Origin: Felis catus
Lineage: Eukaryota
Length of the DNA: 64,000 nt
NCBI RefSeq assembly: GCF_018350175.1
Contig: NC_058368.1
Span: forward strand, 36,396,001 to 36,460,000
Direction: 5' to 3'
The notes below the pieces were generated by a model. The model ran no database searches. It was not told where the DNA came from and saw only the letters and a list, made by a program, of their open reading frames with translations. The position numbers were made by a program, and so were the translations under genes. Of the stretch, positions 5,083 through 38,350 are shown piece after piece (the stretch's first letter is position 1; each line of letters starts with the position of its first letter).

Positions 5083-6712
5083 TATTTTTTTTTTTGTTTG
5101 CAATCCTTTACTTGGTCTGGTTTTCTTAAAACATAAAATCAAGCCTCTTTATCATGACACAGGTTTTTCATAAACAGCCCTCTGCCCACCTCTTTAGCTT
5201 CACCCCCACCCCCACCCTATCCCACAGGCAACCTGGGTTTTGACAATTATGGACCAATTGCAGTTTCTACACCTCAGCATTCTGTCCTATACTTCTATGT
5301 CTTAGCTTTCCTATTCACCCCTTAAAGACACAGTCAGTGAAGTATTTTCCAGCCTTATCTATCACCGTAGGAAAAAAGTCATTCTCTCCTCCTCTCCAGT
5401 TCCCACAGCATCCTGTATTCTGTGCTATATTCTGTGCTATAGCACTCGATCACATGGTTTTGATTCTGATGGCTTAATTGTCAGTCTTCCTTACCAAGCC
5501 CGGAAGGACAGGATTTTATTTTGTCATCTTTGTGCAGCACGTTGCACAGCATGAAGCATGTAATAATAGAGCCATAAAAATTTGTATGAATGAATGAATG
5601 AATGAATGACCGTATCATTGGTAATCACTCAAACCTTGATGGCCTAGGTATAAATGTGCTGGATATAGGCATGATTTTTTTTCCCCCTCTTTCTTTTTTC
5701 TTTGGCCGTTTTGCTGTGTTGCATATTTTTCTCCGGACCCTCATCTTACTTGTGTAGCACAGGACTAAGGGGCTGCTTTCCAGGTGGCTGCTTTGTTCAT
5801 TGTCATTTCCTCCTAGCATTCTTCCTAAGCCTCAGGCTTAGTCTGACACCTTGCTGCATTTCCTCTCCTTGCATCTACAGAGGGTCTCTCTGTGTTCTCT
5901 GCCTCCAATGCCAAGGCCACACAATCTCGACAGGCCTCAAAAAGGCCCTTTCCTACTAAAGTAAACCAACCTCCTGCCTCACCACTTTGTTACTGGTTTT
6001 TCTCATCTCATTTTTTCATCACTCTATTCTCTAATGCGATAGAATCTTCATGAGAAAATACTTTGTTTAAAAAGGAGACTCGTTTCCTATTTAAGGATCT
6101 TCACCAAGATCGGCAAAGAAAGCAAGAGAATACATCATTTTTAAGGTACTCATTGGTGTCCTTTCTTGCCCCACTCACTTAAGTCTGGGATTGGGGGGTC
6201 AGCAGGAAACATTTTACTCCTTTCTGCCTGTTATTTATGTATGGTTCTGAAATTGCTCTGTCTCCAGGAAAGAAGTAATATTTCTCTTCCCAAATTTTCT
6301 CACTGACTTTCAAAGGGGCTTAAATGCTGACTTTCCCACCCTTCAGATCTAGCATACACTACACAATAGGAATCTGAAGTTGCATTTCTAGGTGCAATCA
6401 GTGTATATGTGCAGGGGGTTTGAGAGACTTTGTACTCAGGGCTCAGAATTAGGAACAAGCTGAAGGATTTATCAACGGACAGGGGAAAGAGAGAGCACAC
6501 AAGTGACAAGGGCACAAGCCTCTCTCCTATGCGTTTGCATAATAACTTGACTTTAATATGATTGGTTAATTAGAGAACATTATATTTTCTTGGGTTGAGA
6601 TTGGGAATTAGCATTGGTTGAAACAAAATTGCTGTTCTGGTTGCAGCCAGCTTTGTTTCAATGGCGAGGTGGTAAGACAATGGGGGATGAAGGTGATAAG
6701 GGCGTGTCTTTA

Positions 6713-8600: not shown

Positions 8601-9118
8601 GTTTCTCATGGGCCCATGAGGATGCCTCAGAGCTGGTATAACATTGCCTCTACTGAGGCTCTGAACTAATGTGGGTAGTGTGAACTTCCATCCTTGCACC
8701 TGAACACAGATTTGACTCTTCTGCATGGATTATTTCCTCCTCATCCCCAGGCAGATGGCTACCTGTGGGGTCTACCTAAGGCCTATTGGTCTCATGAAAC
8801 AATTCTTTCTCCTCTTTTCTCTTTAAGCAGAAAATGGAGTTCTTGCTGTCTATAGCATCTGCACCTTACGTCTTATCTCCACCAAGTATTAAAGTCCTGA
8901 TTATGGTATCAGGTGCCTCGCAGTGCAGCTTTAATTCCCTCTTACTCTGAGCCTTTAAATAAATTTCTTCATTTATGCAACCTGGAGATTTTTTTTTCTA
9001 GTGTTTAGCTTGGCTACCTTCTATTAAAATAATTGAAAATGTTTTATCAGGATTTCTATATATTCTTATTGTTGTTAGAGACATAGAGGAAATTTCTCCT
9101 TCTGGTTAGCCTATCATC

Positions 9119-9335
9119 TTTTTTTTTTTTTAATGTTTATTCATTTTGAGAGAAAGAGCATGCACATGCACTCACAGGAGAGCAGGGGATGAGCAGAGAG
9201 GGAGAGAGAAATATCAGCAGGCTCTGTGCCATTGGTGCAGAGCCCAATGGGGGCTCAAACTCACAAACTGTGAGATCATGACCTGAGCCTAAATCAAGAG
9301 TCAGACACTTAACCAGCTGAGCCACCCAGGCTCTC
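9119..9335 (-). mobile_element. Can-SINE
   Basis: T-tail, (GA)n tract, reverse body tgagatcatgacctgagcc...ctgagccacccagg. Confidence 0.93.
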
Positions 9336-9463
9336 CAGAGCCTACCAGCTTAATTAGAAGTCACAGTAAGCCTATCTTTACCTCAAAAGTGTTTTATTCT
9401 GTACGATTCAGTGTTTAAGGAATGGTTGCTGAATTGTTATATAATTGAAGTACATATCATATT

Positions 9464-10295
9464 CTGGCTAAGTTGAACCTTGTATAGAGGAGCTTTAAAT
9501 CAACATTATGGAAAATACACCGAGCAAGAAACTAATGCTCTTGGTGGTGGTGTGTCAAATTGGTTACTCAGAGTGGATTTTTTTTTTTTCTTTTTCACCA
9601 CTTAATTGCCTATTAAGCTTATCTGAGAAATTGATTTTTTATAGCTCTGTAATTAAGTGAATGACTCTTGGATTTCGGTCTTGGCAGATTCTGGGTGTAA
9701 ATTCCAACAATGCCACATTCAAGTGTTCAAGACACATAGTAGGTACTCAATAATCACTTGTTGAAGGAGGAAATGAATGAATAAATGATCTTACTAAATG
9801 TCAGTTCCTCCCAAGTAAAATATGGGTAATAATAGTAACCACCTCATTGGGTTTTGAGAATTGAGTTCATGCATGTAAAGATTCTACTGTAATCTATACC
9901 ATTGGGTAAGAGCTCAATAAATTATGATTCCATAGAGTTACATGAAATGCATATTTCAGGGCCTTGACGTAGAAGAATTTAGATAATTATGTATTCACTT
10001 TACTTTTTCTTTTGTTTGCCTTATTGCTTCGATTATCTATATCTTATTTTGAAAAGATGTCTACTCTTTATAGGGTCACACTCGTAGATAGCAGTAAGAT
10101 TCAACTTTGAACTCATGTTCCCCCAGACTAAATTTATGAAAAAAAATTTCTGATAGTCTTAATATTAATAACAATGGAATGGTTGATCTCCAGGTATTTA
10201 TTACCTTGTTAGAAAAATTGAATCAAGAAAGTAGAAGCCTAAATAAAGACCTAGAATCTTTGCACCAGTGGAAATACCATATCATGTTATTCTAA
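9464..10295 (+). pseudogene. Candidate decayed, intron-containing S100-family (EF-hand) pseudogene
   Basis: 10127-10295 reads TKFMKK/ISDSLNINNNGMVDLQVFITLLEKLNQESRS after a tgttcccccag acceptor, with one extra A in an A8 run. It fits the S100 canonical EF-hand signature apart from four residues, each one base from consensus. 9472-9581 reads VEPCIEE/LNQHYGKYTEQETNALGGGVSNWLLRVDF with one frameshift, matching S100 helix I-loop-helix II spacing. Pattern match by eye only. Confidence 0.42.
9730..9925 (+). mobile_element. L2 3' end plus MIR fragment
   Basis: cacatagtaggtactcaataatcacttgttgaaggaggaaatgaatgaa (L2 end), then tcagttcctcccaagtaaaatatgggtaataatagtaacc (MIR core). Confidence 0.6.
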
Positions 10296-12238
10296 AGAAA
10301 AAAAAAAGGCTTTCCTGATTTAATAGATATTAAAGACAAAGGAGAAATAAAAACACAAATATCCTTGAGTTCATTCTGATTTTCACTGATTACTTTTTTT
10401 AAGGGAGTTAGAATATCTTAAAGAAAATTAGATCATCATATAGTTTTGTGCTATTATAGTCCTTTTAATATTCAACTACAATTTATATAATTTAAACTAC
10501 AAATTTTAGAATTCTTTTGTATTTTCCTGCTTGATAATAAATACAGAAAGTTATAGTGCCATCTTGTGAAAAAGATGCAGAACTGCATTGTATTAACATT
10601 TGAATAAATTGACTTAGGTGAGGAAAGGGATATAAAGCTAAAGAGTTGTGTGTAATAAAGGTCAACCAGCATATTTCTATTACCTTAACTAGATTTAATG
10701 TTAAAAAAAATAGAATTTAGGTGGGTTTGCCACCTTCTCAGGTTTTTCTGTGGCATGGAAGATAGCCAGAAAGGAAAAGCTAACACGTTGAATTGAAACC
10801 ATGCAAGAGAAATTACCAAATTTTAGAACACTTTGATTCCAAGGGGAGAAAGAATGAGAGGAATAAATTATATCTGATTCCTTGAATTGCAAAACTATAT
10901 ATGTGATTGAACCAAAGATGTTGCTCCACACAATTGAGAGGAGAAGGAATTGTTCCTAACACTGGATAAAATACTCACCTGAGCCTACACAAGACAGGGA
11001 TACCCTCTGGTTGTCATAGAAAAAGAATCCAGGGAGTTGACAGAGGTTTTCGTCACTTATAGAAAAGAGTTATCCTGTATGAATGAAAGTGACTCCAGAA
11101 TATTTATTTTAACTTGTTCTAGGAAGAGGCAGGAAGCATCTGTTTGTAGGAATATGAGGCACATTATAGCTAAGTTCAAGGCTCTTTAAACGACCTGGTA
11201 CAAAAGACAAAAGCAGCTTCTTGCCCACTGATTCAAGAGCTCTGTCTTTGCCTGCTTATATCTGAACACCCCACATGCAAGCCCATTGAAACAGTTGTAC
11301 CTGGTCACCAGGACACTACAGAGATCTGGTGAAGGCACCAGCATAGGAAATGGATTTTATTTGAGGTTTAACAGGGGACCAAATGAAAAGAACAAAGACT
11401 GTTCTTGTTAGGATGAGCCAAAAGAGAGAAAGAAAATGAACACGAGGAGATAGAAACTGGGAGGCAGTAATGATTGGAGGTGATTAGATGATTAGGTGAA
11501 GGGATGGTCATAGCAGTTGAAATGGAATCTCATTTTTGTGGTACCATTTTGATGGCCAAAAGATAGCTTCTGTAGCTTCCAGGAAGTATGCTGAAGAAAG
11601 TACCAAGGACGAGGAAAAGATGAGAGAATAGTAATAATGAAAGGGCTCATTTGGGGAAAAAAAGGAAAGAAAAAATTGGATTATTCCCTATGATCCTGTT
11701 CCTATTACCAATATTTTAAGCTCCTTCACTGATCTAAAGGCCCATGGGAGTTGCCAGCTAAATAATTTCACTGCCTCTACTCCCTCCTACATGTTTAAGG
11801 AAGTGGTCATGCACATGCAGTGAGACACGAAACTGAAGGAATTTTATTCCTAAAATCTTCCTTTGAATTTTCTTGCCTTCATGGATTTAACTTAGATCCT
11901 TTAATGCTATAATAATTTGGTTTCATATTGAATGTCCTTTGGGCTTTCATTGTCATTTATTTTATTTTATTTTTCTAAGGAGTTTTCCACGAGTTCAAAA
12001 TAATCCTTTCGGCAAAAGGCAATTCAATTACAGTGACAGCCTAGAAAGAACTCAACATGGTACAATTCTCTAGTGAGATCAGATTTCCTGCTAAACCCAG
12101 ATGATTTTATAAAACCAAAATTTGTATTTGCGTTTTGAGACACTTGACTGAAAGGCTTGATCAAGACCTAAAGTATCAAATAAAAGTGAATCTCTCATCT
12201 ATAGAAGACAGAAGTGAATTAAGAGTTTAAGTGGCTCA

Positions 12239-12450
12239 GGGGCGCCTGGATGGCTCAGTCAGTTAAGCGTCCGACTTCAGCTCAGGTCATGGGTTTGAGC
12301 CCCATGTCAGGCTCTGTGCAGACATCTCAGAGCCTGGAGCCTACTTCGGATTCTGTGTCTCCCTCTCTCTCTCTGCCCCTCCTCTGCTCTCTCTCTCTCT
12401 CTCTCTGTCTCTTTCAAAAATAAATAAACATTAAAAATTAAAAAAAAAAA
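12239..12450 (+). mobile_element. Can-SINE with a short internal deletion
   Basis: Head ggggcgcctggatggctcag. The segment normally found between caggtcatg and gtttgagc is missing. TSD aagagtttaagtggctca / aagagtttaagtgactca. Confidence 0.95.
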
Positions 12451-12706
12451 AAGAGTTTAAGTGACTCATCTAGGGCCATATGTTACCACGGTACAGTCAC
12501 TTAACCAGGTTTGAAAGCATGTTGATTAGATACCAAATCTATAGATATTAGATACCAAATCCATCCACTCAAATGCAGAGGAGCAGAGGAGAATATGTCC
12601 AATTCTTTCCATATCATGGAGATTTCCCATGCTACAGGGATGATTAACACGGGTTCCCAACCTTATCACAACAGTGAGTAGATTGTATCGTAACTAGCTT
12701 TATTTT

Positions 12707-19610: not shown

Positions 19611-21862
19611 GGGAGTTGGGGCCTCCCCTGTTCAGTGCAGAATTTCTCCCCTCCTCAGAGCGTAACAGCAATCCATTGTTGGATAATTGGTCCCTGACTC
19701 AAGGGTCCATCTGACTGAGTTAAAAGTCCCACCCCTTTGCCAATAGTTGGTACAAAAATGAACGTGAGGCTCAGTTCTGGCCAACGGGATGCAAGAAGTG
19801 TACTAGAGACTTCTGTGAAAATTCTTCCTTTCTTAAGAGAGAGCAACAGGAAGCTAGTGTCTGCCCTTCCCATTGGATGCAAATGAAATAACCCTGATTA
19901 CTACTGGTAGGCATTTTATGACCATGAAGGGACCATCAGGGTATCATTTTAAGGCCATAAATTTCCTCATTTGTAAAATGGGGATAATGCTTAAACTTAC
20001 CTCACAGAGGGTGAAGCCAGCATTTTGGATACCCATTCAAAGAGATTAAAAAAACCAAAGTCTTTGCTGACACAATTGAGCTGCTGATCAGCCAAAGGAA
20101 ACTTGCTGTTTTGTGAGCTGATACATTTCCCTGTTGTTTAGTCAGGTTAATTTAGGATTTCTGTTACTTGTAGCTGGAAGCAGCTTATCTGATACAGTGA
20201 TATATGAAGGCTATTTCTATTTTTAATTGTCAGAAAGTCACCGATTTATTACAAATTCTCAAGAAAGATTATTTGTATGAAGTATTGTTCAATGAATATT
20301 GTAAAGCACTTTTCTAATAAAATAGAATCAGCAACCTAATCTTATAAGACAACAAAAAAATCAGCTTAGAAATAATGGATTAAGCATTTTACTTATCTGA
20401 GAATGAATATATATTTCCTATTAATGTATTCTTCTGCAATTCAAGTCATATTTTAATATTAAAACCTCACTGAAACTAATTTTTTGAACTCTCATTTGGC
20501 ATAAAAGATGCAAATATTGAAAGCCTATGTTTCATCCTTCCTTCAACCTTGAGTAATTGTAGGGATTGAAAATTGGGTCTATGGAAAGACCATCCTGAAT
20601 ATTAAATATGCAAGAAACTATAAACATGAAAATATATCCACACAAAGTCAATGGTTTGACTGGTTGAAATATTGATATCTTAATTTCATTTAGAACATTG
20701 ATCTATTAAAACACAATGAAGCTTAATACTTTGAATTAATTTTATTTACTACTGGAAGACTGAGCTTGTAGAAAGAATGTGAATCTAGAAATCAGGAGCT
20801 TTTCGTATTAGTTCCAGTCCTTCCACTGGTTGTAGGTCTCAGGTACATAATTAACCTCTTGTTACCTTACCTAGGAAAGTGAGGAGAGGTGGATCTTCCA
20901 GTTCTATAATTTCATAACTTAAATTGTGCCTTCAATTTCAAAAGTAAAAATAATGAAAGGGACTTTTTCAATAAATATGTTACATGAAATGTACTCTTTT
21001 TCTAATTCCAAATTGGTGACTGCTTTCAATGCATAACTTTTTGTTCCAACATTCCTACTTGGAATTATTTACTGGAAGCAGGACGGAGGCTCCCATGTAG
21101 GAGAGTTTTAATTAAAATGTCCGTGTACCATGCACTGGAAAGACACATTTTAAAGGGAGGTGCGAATAGATGGTCACAAATGAAAAAGGAACATTTCTTT
21201 GTAGTGGTTAGAAACAGGATCAAAATTAAGCATGATTCACAAACCAGTAGTGCGTTTTGTAAATCATGAAATTATCACGATTGATATTCTTATTAAAAAT
21301 GCCACTGTCAACATTCCCACTTGTAGTGTGGTAAGTGCTGCATCAGCAGGCTTAGTTGTGTGGTGTAAAGTTTTTAGTGTTTGCTTTGTACAATGGTGTC
21401 TTCTATGACAAACGTGTTTCATTGGTCCAATGAACAAAGGAAGCCTGTGTGAATATTAGCAGAATGATGATTTTCTACGTGTTCCCCCCATATTAGTAAA
21501 CAAATGTTATGTTTACTTCCTTCAATCTCCTGTTAGTTCCTCTTATTTCTCTCCTCACTCTGCACACCCCCCAACAAAAGACGTGTATATTACACATGAC
21601 TATTAATTTGGGGGCATTTTCTTAGTAAGTTCACTGTCTTTTCTATTTAAAAGGCAGTAGTATTTAACCTTTGGCTTGATAAATATGATTCAATTCAGTT
21701 AAACTGCTGTTCTTCTGGAACTTAAAAAGTAAAATGCCAATATAAATATGTGGTAATTATCACTAGAACTGTTCATTTTTAACTATTAAATTTAAACAAA
21801 GAGCAATTGCTGTTTGTTCATGCAAAACAAACAGTGCCTGCTTAAGATCTTTTTGATTAATC

Positions 21863-25919: not shown

Positions 25920-27729
25920 GTGTGGCTAAAGACTGAAGGCACCTTTTTTAGTCACTGATATTGTTAACCAAATATTGCTGCTTTCTTTCCAGGCACATGG
26001 TAGGATTGTACTTCCCTGTCCTTTTGGAGTAACTTATGGACATATGACTTTCTTTGACCAATGAAAGTAAGCAAAGTGATTCATCTGACTTAAAAAAAAA
26101 AAAAAGCTTTATTGAGATATAATTTGCATACCATAAAATCCATCCTCTTCGGTTGTACAATTCAGTGGTTTTTAGTGTACTCACAAGTTGTATAACTATT
26201 TCCATTATCTAATTCTAAAACATTTTATCACTCCACAAAGAAACCCCACGTCCCTTAGCAGTCACTTCCCATTTCCTCTTCCCCCTCCCTTGCTCATTGC
26301 TAGTATATTTTCTGTCTCTATGGATTTACCTATTCTGGATGTTTGCTACAATACGTGGCCTTTCATGAATGGCTTCTTTCACTTAGCATAATGTTACAAG
26401 GTTCATCCGAGTTGTAGCATGAATCAGTACTTCATTCCTTGTTATGGCTAAATAATATTTCATTGTATAGATTTACCACATTTTGTTTATCCGTTCATCC
26501 ACTGATGGACATTTTGGTTGTCTCTACTTTCTGGCTAATATGAAAAATGTTGCTAAGAACATTTTTTTACAGGTTTTTGTGTGGACATATGTTTTCATTT
26601 CTTTTGGGTACATACCCAGGAGTGGAATTGTTACATCATGGGGTACCTCTATGATTATCTTTTTGAAGAACTGTTAAACTGTTTTCCAAAGCAGCTGCAC
26701 CATTTGACATGCCTAGCCACAATGTGTAATGGTTTCAATTTCTCCACCAACACTTCTTGTTTTCTGTCTTCGAAATTTAACTATCTTTGTGAGTACCTAA
26801 TTATGATTTTGGTTTGCATTTTCCTAATGACTAATGATGTTGAACATCTTTTCATGTGCTTACTGGTAATTTGTACATCTTCTCTGGAGAGATGTCTATT
26901 CAAATCCTTTGCCCATTTTCTATTGGACTGTGGTTTTATTGTTGAGTTGTATGAGGTTTTTTTTTTTATATTCTGGATATAGGTCCCTTGTCAGATATGA
27001 TTTGCAAATATATTTTACCAATCCTTGGGTTGTCTTTTCATTTTCTTGATATTATCCTTTGAAACTCAAAGATTTTCACTTTAATGAAGTCCAATTTATC
27101 GATCTCTTTTCTTTTGTTGTTTGTGCCATATATAAGAAACCTGAGATTTAGTCCTGTGTCAAGGTTTTATAATTTTAGCTTTTACATTTAACTTTACATT
27201 TTACATTTACATTTTATACTTAGATTTCACCTTTAGGTCTATGATTGATTTCAATTATTTTTTTCTATAGGTGTGAGGTAGGGATTCAATTTCATTCTCT
27301 TGTATGTAGACATCTTTTGCATCTTTTGCCTCTTTGTAACAAACACCATTTGTTGCAAAGACTATTTTTTCACTATTGAATTTTCTCGGCATCCTTGTCA
27401 AAAATCGATTGACCATGAATGTAAAGATTTAATCCTGGACCCTCAATTCTATTTCATTGGTTTATATGTGCAGCTTTCTGCCAGTATCTATGTGTTACTT
27501 CTATGAGGAAGTTTTAAGAGCCAGTGCACAATTGGCCACACTTTATTCCTCTTCTTCTTCATTGGTAATATTTCAGATAGGAGTTGGGATCTTAGCCTGG
27601 TTTCCAGAGTAAGGATAATATGGAGAAGAGCTCTGAACTGAAGGACACCAGACATCATGCGAGAATTCAAACTTTGTTTAAACTTATCAATGTGCTGAAG
27701 TTGGTTACTAGCCTGTTCTGACAAATTCA
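25920..27729 (+). mobile_element. MLT1I-like LTR split by an L1 (halves at about 25920-26085 and 27495-27729)
   Basis: The 5' half caggcacatggtaggattgtacttccctg...ctttgaccaatgaaa continues after the L1 as ggaagttttaagagccagtgcacaattggccaca...ctagcctgttctgacaaattca. Confidence 0.7.
26092..27490 (-). mobile_element. L1MB-like LINE 3' end (ORF2 C-terminus and 3' UTR)
   Basis: ctttattgagatataatttgcataccataaaa..., ccactgatggacattttggttg, gtacatacccaggagtggaattg, tgactaatgatgttgaacatcttttcatgtgctt. Confidence 0.9.
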
Positions 27730-28190
27730 GCACTAAAATTGACAACTTTACATAGAAAAAGGGTAGTGTCTTCAGAAAAGCCAGAAGGGAAATAGAAAGC
27801 ATGCTGGACAAGCAAAACTTTAGCCATAATTGTAAACCCCAAGTACTATGAGCTAGCCCTAATTGTGTTGTATATTTCTTGATGTAGCCTGGAGAATTCT
27901 TGGTCCCCTTACCAACATCACGCAAATTGCTGATTACTATGTCCTGGGTGCTGGGTGCTAGAAATTCAGTGTGTAACATGACGTCTCTACTGTCAGGATC
28001 TTACATTCTACTTGGGAAGATAGAATGTACACATAAAAAATAAAGAACAATACAAGCTATCGTGTAATAAGTAGTGCTAGACAGGCTTAAAGGAGAATAA
28101 GGGCAATCCAACATGGTTAAAGAGGGTTTCATCATATTACAATTTAAGTTGTGTCTGCCTGGAAAAGGATTTAGGCAATCAAACAGAGAA

Positions 28191-31421: not shown

Positions 31422-32569
31422 TGTAGTTGCACTGGTTTTAATAGTAATGCTCTGAACCCTTCCACAGGAAACAACTGCAAACAGCCAGTACAGGAAAATA
31501 TCACTCATTTAAAAACACTGCTAAGGAAAAGAAACTGATACAACATTGATAAAAAGATATTATTTAAAAAAAAAAAAGATAAAAGTGAGTAGCAGTATCA
31601 ATTAAGAACTGAATACTCTCCAAAAAATAATGCCATGGAATAGTGGTTTTTGGTACTAAGCACTTCATAGTGAATATTTTTTTAATGGTAAAAGAAACAA
31701 TTATTTATGCAGGAAGAAACCACGCAGAAGCACTAGATATAAATGTTGTGAAATAACAGAAAGAAATAAAACATAAAATAACATGGCAGAACTAAAAAAA
31801 GTAGATGAGAAAAGGTAAAGCCACTAGAGAAATAAAGATGAACCATAAAAGAAAAGAATTTTCTACACTGTAGAAAATTCATGGGAATATAGAGGATAGA
31901 GGAAATAGAAATGGGAAAAGTTAAAAAAAAAAAAGTAAAGAGTTTAAAAGAACTAGAAAAAACACAATAGAGGGGTCAGGCAAAGAAGAGCCAATTTATG
32001 CATTATTGGATTACATAAAGACGACCAGATCAGTGGCAAATACTACAAGAAATTCTCAAGGTTATAAAAATTTTTTAATCAGTCTGTTGAAAGGGTATAC
32101 ACTGGTACATGGAAAACTGACCTAAAATAGTCAATACCAAGGCATATATTAGCAAAGTTACTAAGCTAACAATTTTATAACCATCCAGGTTGTCCTTCAA
32201 GGCCTTGGGAACATTGTAAGCACATAAGAACTCAAAAACTAAGAATGCCTGTGAGCCCCTACTGAGGAAAATAATGTGGGATACATTTCACCAACCAAGA
32301 AAGACTAGGCAAACGAAAGTAAAAGAACTTGTGGTGAGAATTAAATATATTTAACTGTAGAACTAGACTGAAACAAATGAGAATAGAATGATAGAAATAA
32401 GCCATGTATGTCCTTACAATTTAGAAAGTAGCTAAGCAAATTAGGAGAGTCAGGAGAGAAAAGAGGGAGATTGTCCCATCAATAGTATCTGGGGGTCAAA
32501 TAATATTACCTCAAGTTGACAGTCAAATACTGGAAGTAAAGGAAAATTTAACAAATATAAAGAAATATA

Positions 32570-32755
32570 ATTTTTTGGAGAGAGAGAGAGAGAGAGAGCA
32601 TGAGTGAGGGATGGACAGAGGGAGAGGGAGAGAGAATCCTAAGTGGACCCAGTGTGGAGCCACACACAGGATTTATCTCGTGACTACCATGAGATCATGA
32701 TCTAAGCCAAAATCAAGAGTTGGACACTTAAAGGACTGAGCCACCCAGGTGCCCC
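32570..32755 (-). mobile_element. Can-SINE
   Basis: (GA)n tract, reverse head gagccacccaggtgcccc. TSD aagaaatata. Confidence 0.92.
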
Positions 32756-32961
32756 TAAGAAATATATCTTTATCGATTCATAATGGAACACAAAGGGACC
32801 AAAAGAAACAAGAAGAGGAGAAAATATTTTATTATTATTGAGCCTCATAGAAAACTAATAGTGTTAAAAAAAAATAAAGGTAAATAGAGAAATAAAAATT
32901 TAGACCCTCTTAAACATCAAGAAAACTACATACACATAAAAACAAATCACATTAGAGAGAC

Positions 32962-33183
32962 TTTTTTTAAGTCTATTTATTTATTTTGAGAGAGAGAGAG
33001 AGCACATGTGCGAGCAGGGGAGTGGCAGAGAGAAAAGCAGAGAGAGAGAACCCCAATCCTAAGCAAGCTCTGTGCTGTTAGCTCAGAGCCTGATGAGTCG
33101 CTGGGTCCCACAAACTGTGAGACCATGACCTGAGTTGAAATCAAGAGTTGGACGCTCAACTGACTGAGCCACCCAAGCACCCC
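32962..33183 (-). mobile_element. Can-SINE
   Basis: T-tail, (GA)n tract, reverse head gagccacccaagcacccc. Confidence 0.92.
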
Positions 33184-34043
33184 TGGAAAGACTTTTAAAA
33201 ACAAAAGTAAGTGATAACAAAACAAAACAAAGCAAAACCAAACCAAACAAAACTGTGATCAGACCACATAATATAAAACAATATGACAGAAATAAGGCCA
33301 AATACATCTATTATGTTGATAAATGTAAATGAGCTTAACTCACCTATTAAAGGAAAATATATTTTCAGGTTAGAGCTCAAAGCAAAACTTTGTTCTGTAT
33401 GCAGAAGACACATCTAAGACTTTCAGAAGCATTGAAACTGAAGTACGTTTTGACAAGTCAATATCAGATAAAGTGGAATTCAGGATTAAATTACATAATA
33501 CATGACCTTTATGATACCAAAGGGACAGTTGACAGTGAAAATATAAAAGTTACAAAAATCTATGCACCACTCAAAATAGCAGTGACATTTATAAAGCACA
33601 AATGATAGGAATTGCAAGGAGGAATAGACAAAAAGAGACATGAATAGAGGAGAGTAAGGTCTAAAAGACCAACACAACGTTATTAAAATAAATCTATTCC
33701 ATGCATGTCGAACTCTGTTCCTGAAAATACAAAATACACCTTGTTTTCAAATGCCTAAGGAACAGTCATGGAACTTGATTATAATTAGAACACAGAGTAA
33801 CCTTGAATCAATAACTTGGATTACAATAAAATAAAATTAAAAATAAATCAGATAATAAGTCTTCTTCATCTGATAATTTAACAAATTGTGAAAAACTTGG
33901 GTTATGGGTCAAAGAAGAGCTAAAAACTGAAATTATAGAATTTGAAAATATATAATGGTATTTACAGTGGAAATGCTATATCACAGTGCAAAAAAATGTC
34001 ATAGCCCTAAATATTTAGATTACTTTTAAAAAAGGAAATAAAA

Positions 34044-34315
34044 GGGGCGCCTGGGTGGCACAGTCGGTTAAGCGTCCGACTTCAGCCAGGTCACGATCTC
34101 GCGGTCTGTGAGTTCAAGCCCCGCATCGGGGTCTGGGCTGATGGCTCAGAGCCTGGAGCCTGTTTCCGATTCTGTGTCTCCCTCTCTCTCTGCTCCTCCC
34201 CCATTCATGCTCTGTCTCTCTCTGTCCCAAAAATAAATAAATAAAAAAAAAAAAACGTTGAAAAAAAAAAGAAAAAAAAAAAGAAAAAAAAAAACAAAAA
34301 GATAAAAAAAAATTA
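34044..34315 (+). mobile_element. Young feline Can-SINE with a long A-tail
   Basis: SINEC_Fc-type head (cagccaggtcacgatctcgcggtc), A-rich tail of about 85 nt, TSD aaaaaaggaaataaaa. Confidence 0.96.
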
Positions 34316-35139
34316 AAAAAAGGAAATAAAAATAAATTAATTAAACTATCAACTTAAAAGATTTGAAAAAGAAAAATAAAGTAAACTGAAGGAAATAGAA
34401 GGAAGTATTAATAAATATGAAGGTAGAGTCAATGGTTTAAAAAAATAGAAAAATAAAACTGATCAATAAATCCAAAACCCGACTAAGGAAAAAAATAGAA
34501 TATATAAACAAGTTAACTTAATCAATGAAAAATAAGAAAGGTGTAACTAGATAGATTAAGAAATGACAGTAGGAAAGTAACCCCAGAAAGAATTCTATGA
34601 TTACTCTGCTCAACTCTATGTAAATAAATTGGAAAACCTAAATGAAATGAATAAATTACCATAAAAAAAATAGAATGTGTAAACAGACCAATGTCCAAGA
34701 AAAAAAAACAGCAACCGTCAAATCGTGATCTTCTAAAAACATTACCAGGTCCAGGCGATTTTACAGGAATTTTGTAAAACACAATAAAAAAAAGAATTCC
34801 AATGCTATTAGAACTATTTCAAGAAAATAAAAATTCCAAGTCTATTTTTTTCATAAGTTTGCAATACCTATATGGAAAAAGATTCGAAACCAAAGGAAGG
34901 CCACATATAGAACACCTGAATTAATGGAAATACATTATTATATGCTTGGTTAGGAGTAAAACCAGTTTCCTCTAAGTTAATTAGCTAATTTAATATGATC
35001 CCAATAAAAATACAACAGATGTATTTTTACCTAGACAAATTGTTCCTAAATTTCACATAGAAATATTAAAAAGCAAAAATAAAACACAAAAATTCTTTAA
35101 AGAGTCATAGTGAGGCAGAACTAGTCCTACCAGATATTA

Positions 35140-35757
35140 AAGATTCCTGCCTCTTAGTGCACACTTCCTGTATAATCTTCTTCATTTGACCATGGACAGG
35201 ACCTGTAAATATTATGAATAGCATGGCTATGGTTAGATTAGATAAGAGGGGAAAAAATGAGTAGATTTGGCAGATATGATTAAGATGTCTAATCAGTTGC
35301 CTTTAAATTAATTAAAATGGAGATTGTCCTGGGTGGGACTGACCCAATCAAGTGAGTCCTTTAATACAAGGTTTAGATGTCAGAGAATCTTCTGCTGGCC
35401 TTGCAGAAACAAATCTCCCTGTTGTGAGAGGTCTTCTAGGAGGACCACTTAACAAGGAATTGCAGGAATCTTTCAGATTTGAGAGTGACCCACAGCTTAG
35501 TAAGAAAGAGGGTCCTCACTCCTACAATTACAAGGAAGTTAATTCTATCAACAATCAGATAAATTTGGAAGAGAACCCCAAACTCTGAAAGCTATCATAG
35601 TCTGGCTCCACATAATTTCAGCCTTGTGAGACCCTGAGACCAGGATCCAGTTAAGTTGTTCTTGGCCTCCTGGCCCATAGACACTGCGAGATAATAAATA
35701 TATGTTGTTTATAGTCACTGAGTTGTAGTAGTTTGTTACACAGAAAGAAATAACAAA
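35140..35757 (+). mobile_element. MLT1E/F-like MaLR solo LTR
   Basis: ctaatcagttgcctttaaattaattaaaatggagattgtcctgggtggg...cctacaattacaaggaagttaattct...cagccttgtgagaccctgag...gagataataaatatgttgtttt. Confidence 0.85.
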
Positions 35758-37399
35758 TAATCACCTAAAAACCTAAATTCCAGAAGATAACAGAATTAAA
35801 TGTAAAAACTGAAACTATTAAGTAGAACAGGACATAAATACATACAATACCAATGATTTAATCAGTAACATTTTAAAGAGATTGTTGTTACCATTTTCCA
35901 AGGGAATGCTGTATTTTCTAGCCTAAAGTTACCAGAAGTGAAAATCCCTGACAGTTTAGAAATGAACAATGAGATCATCCCAAGGGAAAATAAAAAACTC
36001 TGTGGCTTATAACCAAAGCGATATTTTTTAAAAATAATGCACACAACTAAAATATTGGAGGGAAAAACCCAAAAACATAAACAAAGAGAAAGCAGGAAAA
36101 ATTAATTAATAAATCTACAAAGAGAAAGAAATTCAGTTAAAAAGAGGACCAATAAAAGAGACAAAACAAAAATAGAATTGATAAAATCTTTAAAAGGCTG
36201 GTAAAATAGGCAAACATTATGTAAGTCTGACCAATTAAAAAAGAGAGAAAAGAGAAATATATACCATTAATAATGGAATATGACCATATATTCAGAGAAA
36301 AATCTTTAATGATAGAATTCTAAACACTAATCAATTAGATAATAGAATGAGAAGAGATCCCATTAAAAATAGCAATTATATATATATACCTATATATATA
36401 TTTATAATGATATACTCTATGTGATATATGTGATATGAGATGCTCTGCTTGTAAATGGGAACACTGTACACTCTAAATAAGGCAATTCTATAAAATAATC
36501 TATACATTCAACATAATTTCAACCAAAATTCCATTTGAAGTTGAAGGGCTAAATTAAGAAATTAAAAGGTTTATAAGAATTATCATGAAGCATGCCATGT
36601 GCCAGGAATAATGTTGAGTATTTCACAATGACCTTAGTCTTGCCACAATTCTTTGAGGTAGATACTACTATTATCTCATTTTTTGCAGATTAAGAGAGTG
36701 AGCTTTAGAAACCTTAGACAGCATGTAATAAGAGGCTCAGTCTGGTTTTAACCTATGTTGTCTGAATTCAAGGTCATCCTTTTGACCACCACACATACTG
36801 GCTCAAGTTCACATTGTTGGCAAAAGGATGGACTTAGGAGTGACTGGTTTTGCGACAACTGCCTCATGACTTAGAAGAGAATAAAGGTGAATCCGTACCT
36901 CTCACCTGATAGTGAAGCAAGTTTCAGAGAAATTAAATGGGAACGATTTGCAAAAAAAATATACACCACCAGAGAACAAACAGATAAATATTCATATATC
37001 TTGGGGGAAGAAAAGATATTTCTAAGCATAACACTAAAGACAGTAGAATAACAATTTTAACTTCTAAAAAGCAATAAATAAATAAATAAATAAATAAATA
37101 GCAATAAAGCCCAATAACAAATTTAAAGTACCAATAACAAAATAGGAAAAAATTTTTTGCAATTTGATAGACAAAAGGTAATGTAATAATGTATAAAAGG
37201 CCTTTCAAATCAATAAGTACAAGATGAAGACCTCAGTTTTATAAACTTAGATTGTTCTTAACAATATCTCAATAAGTTTATAATGGGGACAAGGTCAATG
37301 ACTTGAAGTGTAGAGAGCTGTTGTAAAACATAAAGGTTTATGGGTGCGCTGGGAATTTAAATTATTCAGAGAAGTTCTAGGGAGAACAATTACCCCTTC

Positions 37400-38350
37400 A
37401 ATTTGTCACTAAATAGATGTTTATCAAGTCTGTACTCTGTACTAGGAACAAGTACACTGGTGAGGCACACTGGTGAACAAAACACGGGGCATAGATTCCA
37501 ACTGTGGGAAACTGTAAATTAAGGAGAGAGTGATAGGGACAGAGAGATGGAAAGAGAGAGAGAAAAGCTAGGCCAAAAAATTAAAACGGGACTGTGTGAC
37601 TATCTGACAATGACTGGTCATAGAAAATTTCTCTGAGAGGGTGAAATTTGAATCTGAATGACAAGATGTCAAGTGATGCTTTGGCAAGAAGTGATTTACA
37701 TAGAGAGAAGTGGAGTGTCCAGTTGGGAAGGTTACTACAGGGGTCTATGTAAGAGACAATGATGTCTCAGACTAGGGATAGTGCCAGTATTTTTTTAAGT
37801 TGATGGTATATTATTTACTCAGGTGGAAAAACTAAGAGGGAAACAGATAGTTTAGGTTGGGAGATGGGTAGAATGCAAGAATCGCAAATTAGCTGCACTA
37901 TGGTAGGTCTGAGAGAGAGATGTCAAATAGGCAACAGTGAGGGAATGGATGTGGAGACTCAGAGATTTGGGTTCCATTATCATATGGATGATATTTCACC
38001 CTAGAGTCTAGATAAGAACCTCTAGGGCAAGAATGTAGACAAAAAAGAGAAGGGAGCAAAGGAAAGAACCATAGAGTACCCAACATTTAGAGCAGCTGAG
38101 GAGGAAAAGTCAGCCAAGGAGCCTTAGAAGAAATGGCTGGTGATATAGGAAAAAATCAAGACTGTGGAGTTATAGAGGCAAGAGAAAAGTTCCACAGAAG
38201 GTAAAGGTGTCCACAGTAGCTAAAGTGGTCAAATGCTTTGCTGCTGAGAAATCAAGTAAGAGAAAAGTGAGTGCTTTGGCAATGAAAGCTATTGGGACTC
38301 TTGACAAGGGCAGCGTCAGGCAGTGGAGGGAGCAGAAGCCCAACCCAAAG
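37400..38350 (-). mobile_element. L2 LINE fragment
   Basis: aaatagatgtttatcaagtctgtactctgtactagg...ggtgaacaaaaca, and gagagatgtcaaataggcaac. Confidence 0.7.

Follow-up and report, generated by a model that had tools for sequence, protein, structure and literature searches.

The DIAPH3–TDRD3 interval and its EF-hand-like stretch

The window, by which we mean the whole 64-kb segment of Felis catus DNA analysed here, spans contig positions 36396001–36460000 in a genome of 2.43 Gb in total. On the same contig, the minus strand carries FH2 exons at 35.94–35.98 Mb and the plus strand an RMI1_N_C exon at 36.55 Mb; large cadherin ORFs are found at 33.97 and 37.35 Mb. With names assigned via human synteny, we take the gene order to be PCDH17–DIAPH3–TDRD3–PCDH20. 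Judged from these domain matches, the EF-hand-like stretch described below sits between a DIAPH3-type and a TDRD3-type gene. Two cadherin ORFs on this contig, one long and one shorter, point apart from each other at 29.79 Mb (minus strand) and 30.15 Mb (plus strand). The human DIAPH3–TDRD3 interval is treated as intergenic in one report (PMC8907276), and Tdrd3–Diaph3 appears in another within a list of gene pairs linked since sponges (10.1101/633651). A literature search, with most subscription journals outside its scope, returned no S100 or EF-hand gene reported at DIAPH3–TDRD3.

The initial annotation described a fossil S100-type EF-hand exon in otherwise gene-free DNA. As far as tested, the surrounding DNA is indeed gene-free: none of 450 window ORFs, comprising 300 of the 344 long ORFs (those up to 54.9 kb) and 150 plus-strand ORFs upstream of the stretch, exceeded the Pfam cut-off. 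The ATG-initiated ORFs of at least 52 codons in the window number 89. In the 30 kb preceding the window, Pfam gave only LINE reverse transcriptase among the 150 ORFs scored of 249 listed. A broken LINE-1 lies there on the plus strand at about 36.372–36.376 Mb, some 20 kb before the window, with one ORF piece matching RVT_1 (E 6.7e-14). Within the window, positions 26500–28000 and 32000–38000 are strongly skewed and AT-rich, with LINE-like translations and no Pfam match, and are probably old L1 fragments. The stretch itself is bracketed by SINEs at 9116–9339 and 12219–12464, and is present in a single copy: a genome search, with very common words skipped, matched only the stretch itself and gave no further copies of the kind expected of an interspersed repeat. 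In 341 kb of DNA from the same genome no match to the stretch fell below E 0.02, and the best match lay outside the ORF. Searching the genome for S_100 domains yielded 39 matches, none of them near the locus; on this contig the nearest is at 140.9 Mb. The stretch has DIAPH3/TDRD3-type neighbours, with the S100 domains located elsewhere in the cat genome.

Re-reading the sequence reproduced the letters on which the fossil-exon proposal was built. The proposed exon-like stretch, delimited by sequence and ORF call, runs on the plus strand from the acceptor to the stop codon (10127–10295). It is preceded by a weak splice-acceptor-like site in phase 0 (10102–10126, plus strand; position weight matrix score 7.1), whose AG occupies 10125–10126. 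A short frame through the ATG at 10136 follows this AG, and is shifted by a run of eight A (A8, 10139–10146) into the open frame of P0001, a 51-residue peptide encoded at 10140–10292 (plus strand) and ended by TAA at 10293–10295; in the cat sequence the ATG and the EF-hand-like residues are thus read in different frames. A run of ten A (10298–10307) lies just past the stop. The codons TCT at 10149, AAT at 10161, CTC at 10188 and GTA at 10194 are all present, each a single base from the codon of a consensus residue. Two AATAAA hexamers were located correctly at 10242–10247 and 10346–10351, both on the plus strand, but the former falls within the reading frame and so cannot serve as the poly(A) signal of that frame. 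The latter, about 50 nt past the stop, is uninformative at the local density: the plus strand of the window carries 122 such hexamers (1.9 per kb), nine of them in the surrounding 2.9 kb.

Sequence, profiles and an AlphaFold2 model together delineate a 12-residue EF-hand-like loop at 10161–10196 (plus strand) with N1, G6, V8, D9, L10 and V12. Residues N, N, N and D occupy ligand positions 1, 3, 5 and 9, and position 12 is V. Canonical calcium binding by an EF-hand requires Glu at loop position 12. Even if read in frame, the peptide would not be expected to bind calcium canonically. The codon of position 12 is overlapped by a candidate splice donor, CAG/GTATTT (10194–10199, plus strand), recognized in the sequence. 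The loop is followed by a predicted exit helix and a Leu-spaced helical tail, 32 residues in all (10197–10292, plus strand), delineated by AlphaFold2 and VIA-align.

Similarity to EF-hands compared with null windows

The fossil-exon proposal rested on a PROSITE-type S100 signature, used here as quoted in the initial annotation: the stretch fits seven of 11 sites, the others lie one base off, and no stop intervenes. Such a combination occurs at chance level. The window contains six matches, 40 kb of flanking DNA contains five, and 993 of 1000 null windows contained at least one, with a mean of 6.0 per window. Furthermore, 20 true S100s fit 9–11 of the 11 sites. Profile searches gave no significant match to S100 or EF-hand models either. 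Pfam on P0001 and its two relatives, P0002 and P0003, returned no EF-hand model at E ≤ 10, only unrelated matches below the cut-off. A hidden Markov model (HMM) built from 20 S100 last exons of the same genome gave P0001 2.3 bits, which is below the top 12 of the window, and reached up to 18.1 bits in 150 null windows. A DNA profile from 25 S100 exons scored the stretch at 2.0 bits (E 8.3). By signature and HMM, therefore, the stretch does not match the canonical C-terminal EF-hand of S100 type.

A more tolerant, BLOSUM-averaged S100 profile of 25 columns singles the stretch out. Among 127,846 frames and positions in the window it ranks first, with 27.2 against 18.6 for the next. In three sets of null windows this score was reached by 0 of 500, 1 of 1500 and 2 of 1000, rates that flatter the stretch because the profile columns and thresholds were picked after the candidate was known. 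Left out one at a time, the 20 true S100 exons score 40–66, all above the stretch. Taken by itself the loop is ordinary, being matched as well by 58 of 500 null windows. A generic EF-hand profile also places the stretch top in the window; 18 null windows of 1500 and 14 of another 1000 did as well. That the resemblance exceeds chance is thus only partly true: it holds for the tolerant S100 profile and fails in the signature and HMM tests. The second-best match of the tolerant profile, at 20222–20314 on the same strand and 10 kb downstream, has an HMM score of 4.9 bits and lies in the null range. A short plus-strand frame at 9936–9974, about 190 nt upstream of the stretch, gives EF-like HMM scores of 3.5–5.0 bits, equal to background.

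With 27.2 on the S100 profile versus 15.2 on the generic EF-hand profile, the stretch leans toward the S100 type. The difference of 12 is at the border between S100s (11–40) and other EF-hands (up to 10.7), and the family assignment suggested by these sequence scores is accordingly soft. The EF-hand resemblance claimed initially is therefore genuine at the scale of the window and S100-leaning.

At genome scale, a DNA pattern of the loop core had 40 matches, compared with 59 for its reversed control. One of the 40 is the stretch, 13 are known EF-hand places and 26 are others, of which the 20 scored include none close to it (maximum 15.4 on the S100 profile). Three loop-core look-alikes elsewhere in the genome (L080–L082) were dismissed as chance, with profile scores of at most 0.4. 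Another match, at C42:48174392, has a loop core that is almost perfectly canonical for an EF-hand, but its flanks do not match and a stop follows early (profile score 13.4); either good loops arise outside recognizable EF-hand exons, or this is a split exon. By our own arithmetic, a null rate of 1/1500 to 2/1000 over about 38,000 windows per genome implies some 25–75 equal look-alikes genome-wide. Given a comparable acceptor in range in 1%–3% of cases, about one look-alike of this kind is expected per genome for the motif alone.

Structural predictions point to the same region. AlphaFold2, run with three sequences, predicts a helix at residues 3–6, the loop, and a helix at residues 17–50, with a mean pLDDT of 79.7 and values of 88–93 at residues 21–50. 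The model thus shows the helix-loop-helix fold, with N/N/N/D at loop positions 1, 3, 5 and 9 but V at 12. Foldseek returned nothing at E ≤ 0.001, its top rows being S100B and calbindin D9k at E 4.5–4.9. Of 48,161 chains, VIA-align gave none with Z ≥ 5; its matches were generic long helices and coiled coils, and the best 50 rows included no EF-hand. Sequence searches of the PDB gave best E-values of 0.13, 0.33 and 0.47, with EF-hands in six of the eight matches of one search. A three-sequence profile reached one S100 chain, PDB 9hyg_A, at E 0.58 with 11 of 24 residues identical. The ESM Atlas gave EF-hand clusters at 0.92–0.93 with fewer than 170 shared features. These structure, PDB and language-model leads all draw on a single segment of 25 residues and are not mutually independent.

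Relatives, exon anatomy and origin

A phmmer search of 1.84 billion representatives recovered one protein, P0002, which is 96% identical to the peptide. Its cluster consists of P0002 and P0003, both 52 residues long and both from Logan contigs. The one-base frameshift postulated for the cat A8 run is borne out by these relatives, which lack it and are in frame from Met, with the proviso that slippage is frequent at A-runs and that a 52-residue protein call presupposes an in-frame version. Both relatives retain S, N, L and V at all four non-consensus signature sites; any loss of calcium binding would therefore predate their split. The identity of 94%–96% to the relatives equals the neutral expectation at an assumed DNA divergence of 2%–3%. 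A search for homologues of similar length gave P0002 alone, and word searches for longer homologues gave none at E ≤ 10 among 28 and 2862 longer candidates. In power controls, a whole-exon orthologue was found in 287 of 300 trials at 60% identity and in 73 of 300 at 40%, and in only 7 of 300 at 60% identity if just the first 30 residues were coding. Given this power and the lack of an orthologue, a recent loss with intact mammalian orthologues is unlikely, and an ancient loss is possible. Of 593 pattern matches in JGI metagenomes, two loci were pursued and rejected as chance, because only a short tail motif of an unrelated protein is shared. Neither DNA nor protein searches revealed a parent gene in the cat genome. 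The best S100 exon agrees with the stretch at 41 of 78 bases, and descent from the S100 exons of L034 or L048 was rejected because only a 32-column patch or the A-run aligns.

The candidate acceptor is in phase 0 and lies 10 codons ahead of the pre-loop Leu, with one A of the run uncounted; in 25 S100 genes of the same genome this distance is 10–15 codons, with a mode of 14. Thus a putative acceptor AG with the phase and spacing of the S100 hinge intron is present. Its score of 7.1 is at the weak end of the 25 true S100 acceptors (6.8–24.5, self-included), and is equalled or exceeded by 228 of the 8960 AG sites in the window. From loop to stop the stretch encodes 32 residues, compared with 10–57 in small S100s.

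A survey of the family assigns every S100 EF-hand a separate exon whose border is fixed, and names B, G, P and Z as the mammalian S100 singletons (PMC2266712). One EF-hand per exon predicts that a true S100 gene would have a pseudo-EF-hand exon upstream. Profile scans of the window and the 30 kb before it revealed no S100 first coding exon in 40 kb upstream, and the generic EF-hand profile revealed no partner EF-hand above background in the same DNA. On a frameshift-aware profile, the best plus-strand score for exon 2 in these 40 kb is 21.4, equal to background. The stretch scores 31.2, in line with the median of 33 for S100 last exons that have decayed by some 0.2 substitutions per site. Exon 2 decayed equally has a median of 41 and a 10th percentile of 24, a detection rate that is optimistic because these controls are part of the profile; a deleted or more decayed exon would escape. 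A candidate exon 2 at 5130–5240 (plus strand), about 5 kb upstream, was rejected on its background-level scores (5.7 bits; 19.8 frameshift-aware) and wrong spacing. The frame there faintly resembles the first half of the N-terminal exon of S100 genes.

The stretch makes no S100 protein. It is single-copy, has no partner exon and no significant family match, and carries the signature at chance level. The proposal that it is the last exon of a dead S100 gene is not supported, in view of the missing upstream N-terminal exon, an HMM score of about 2 bits, the lack of a nearby S100 and the non-consensus residues kept by the relatives; with the N-terminal exon, the signature and synteny all tested and wanting, it should not be classed as an S100 pseudogene. 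We consider that the stretch probably came to resemble an EF-hand by chance, in AT-rich DNA that evolves neutrally, and infer both the neutral drift and the chance origin. On this reading the AT-rich intergenic DNA that separates DIAPH3 from TDRD3 drifts neutrally and would happen to encode an EF-hand-like peptide, in which a sequence rich in AAT, AAC and GAT would yield the Asn/Asp loop, and T-rich codons the hydrophobic flanks. Against chance stand the top rank on both the tolerant and the generic EF-hand profiles, the phase and spacing of the acceptor, the unframeshifted relatives and the agreement of weak searches on an EF-hand.

It is rather unlikely that the stretch descends from the terminal exon of an EF-hand gene outside the S100 family, with an even-numbered EF-hand and a coiled-coil tail. 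In this account the gene would have died before the cat family radiation and the exon would have decayed, while its other exons would be decayed as well or lie further upstream. A generic EF-hand score that is top in the window and reached by about 1% of nulls, the predicted helix-loop-long-helix, a profile difference at the class border, the relatives' frame open from Met and the weakening of searches below 50% identity would all fit such a gene. Against it, no second EF-hand or other domain appeared in the 150 plus-strand window ORFs upstream, the 30 kb before the window gave only LINE reverse transcriptase (150 of 249 listed ORFs), and a whole-exon orthologue at 60% identity, detectable in 287 of 300 trials, was not found. 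It is unlikely that the stretch comes from a singleton S100 gene that has since been lost, its first coding exon having been deleted or having decayed. The phase-0 acceptor at 10 codons and the 32 residues from loop to stop are within the S100 ranges, S100 exons make up nine of the 10 best pairwise matches, 26 bases are shared with the last exon of L034 over the 32-column DNA patch, an S100 chain is reached at E 0.58, and an orthologue with 30 coding residues would be detected in just 7 of 300 trials at 60% identity; the original protein may have ended soon past the exit helix, as in the shortest S100 of this genome. Opposed to this are the missing exon 2, the HMM score of about 2 bits, seven signature sites versus 9–11 in the 20 true S100s, the 39 genomic S100 domain matches with none near the locus, the S/N/L/V shared by the relatives, and a published record of S100 singletons that names B, G, P and Z (PMC2266712).

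It is very improbable that the stretch is a fragment of an ancient, 5'-truncated retrocopy made from the mRNA of an EF-hand gene, or that it continues to serve as a small ORF or lncRNA exon in other felids with an intact frame. The A10 run after the stop, the whole ORF in both relatives and the occurrence of part of the stretch in some RNA-labelled runs, which is no evidence of expression, could be read in this way, but no parent gene exists in the genome by our searches (the best S100 exon being identical at 41 of 78 bases), real S100 retrocopies in this genome score 17–31 bits on the last-exon HMM, and the divergence from the relatives looks neutral. A bolder form of descent, which we likewise hold to be unlikely, is an undescribed, anciently lost singleton S100 gene at DIAPH3–TDRD3 with the stretch as its surviving last exon. 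Its calcium ligands would have gone before the cat radiation, the frame would have stayed open in other felids, and the frameshift would have arisen in the cat lineage; an intact orthologue, unannotated or too diverged, may survive in marsupials or non-mammals.

Were this S100 reading true, the locus would be a fifth singleton beside B, G, P and Z, placed between two genes whose linkage extends from sponge to human (10.1101/633651), and the ancestral vertebrate S100 gene count would change. If the stretch is a chance product, it calibrates motif-based fossil calls: a sequence a few one-base steps from the PROSITE signature, occurring about six times per 64 kb, is not evidence of a fossil.

Comparison with known S100 and EF-hand systems

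Like the proposed fossil, four S100 processed pseudogenes in this genome (L022, L025, L030 and L033) are dead, S100-derived and outside the clusters; their parents are presumably S100A11, A6 and A10. They join both EF-hands with no intron and score 17–31 bits on the exon-3 HMM, whereas the stretch lacks an N-terminal half and reaches about 2 bits. With calmodulin-type even-numbered EF-hands (EF-hand_1, EF-hand_7) the stretch shares weak matches to the loops of CDPK, calcium vector protein and CaBP1. It differs from them in that all these matches have E ≥ 0.13 and that it has no partner EF-hand; nor is it one of the 146 genomic matches to EF-hand_7, for which 150 of 313 candidates were scored. 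PDB 9hyg_A, a 97-residue chain named "Protein S100" that we take to resemble fish ictacalcin, is similar to the stretch over the helix-loop-helix, to which its identities are confined. Past residue 25 the two are unlike, the E-value is non-significant, and single-sequence queries do not retrieve this chain.

Compared with the last coding exon of S100 genes (PF01023), the stretch carries N1, L10 and V12 where the S100 exon has D, F/Y and E, scores 27 versus 40–66 on the tolerant profile and fits seven versus 9–11 signature sites; unlike S100 genes, it is without a first coding exon and lies outside and away from the S100 loci. What it shares with that exon is a loop rich in D and N that carries G6, V8, D9 and F13, preceded at 10–15 codons by a phase-0 AG of acceptor type, and a hydrophobic exit helix with a stop a few dozen codons on.
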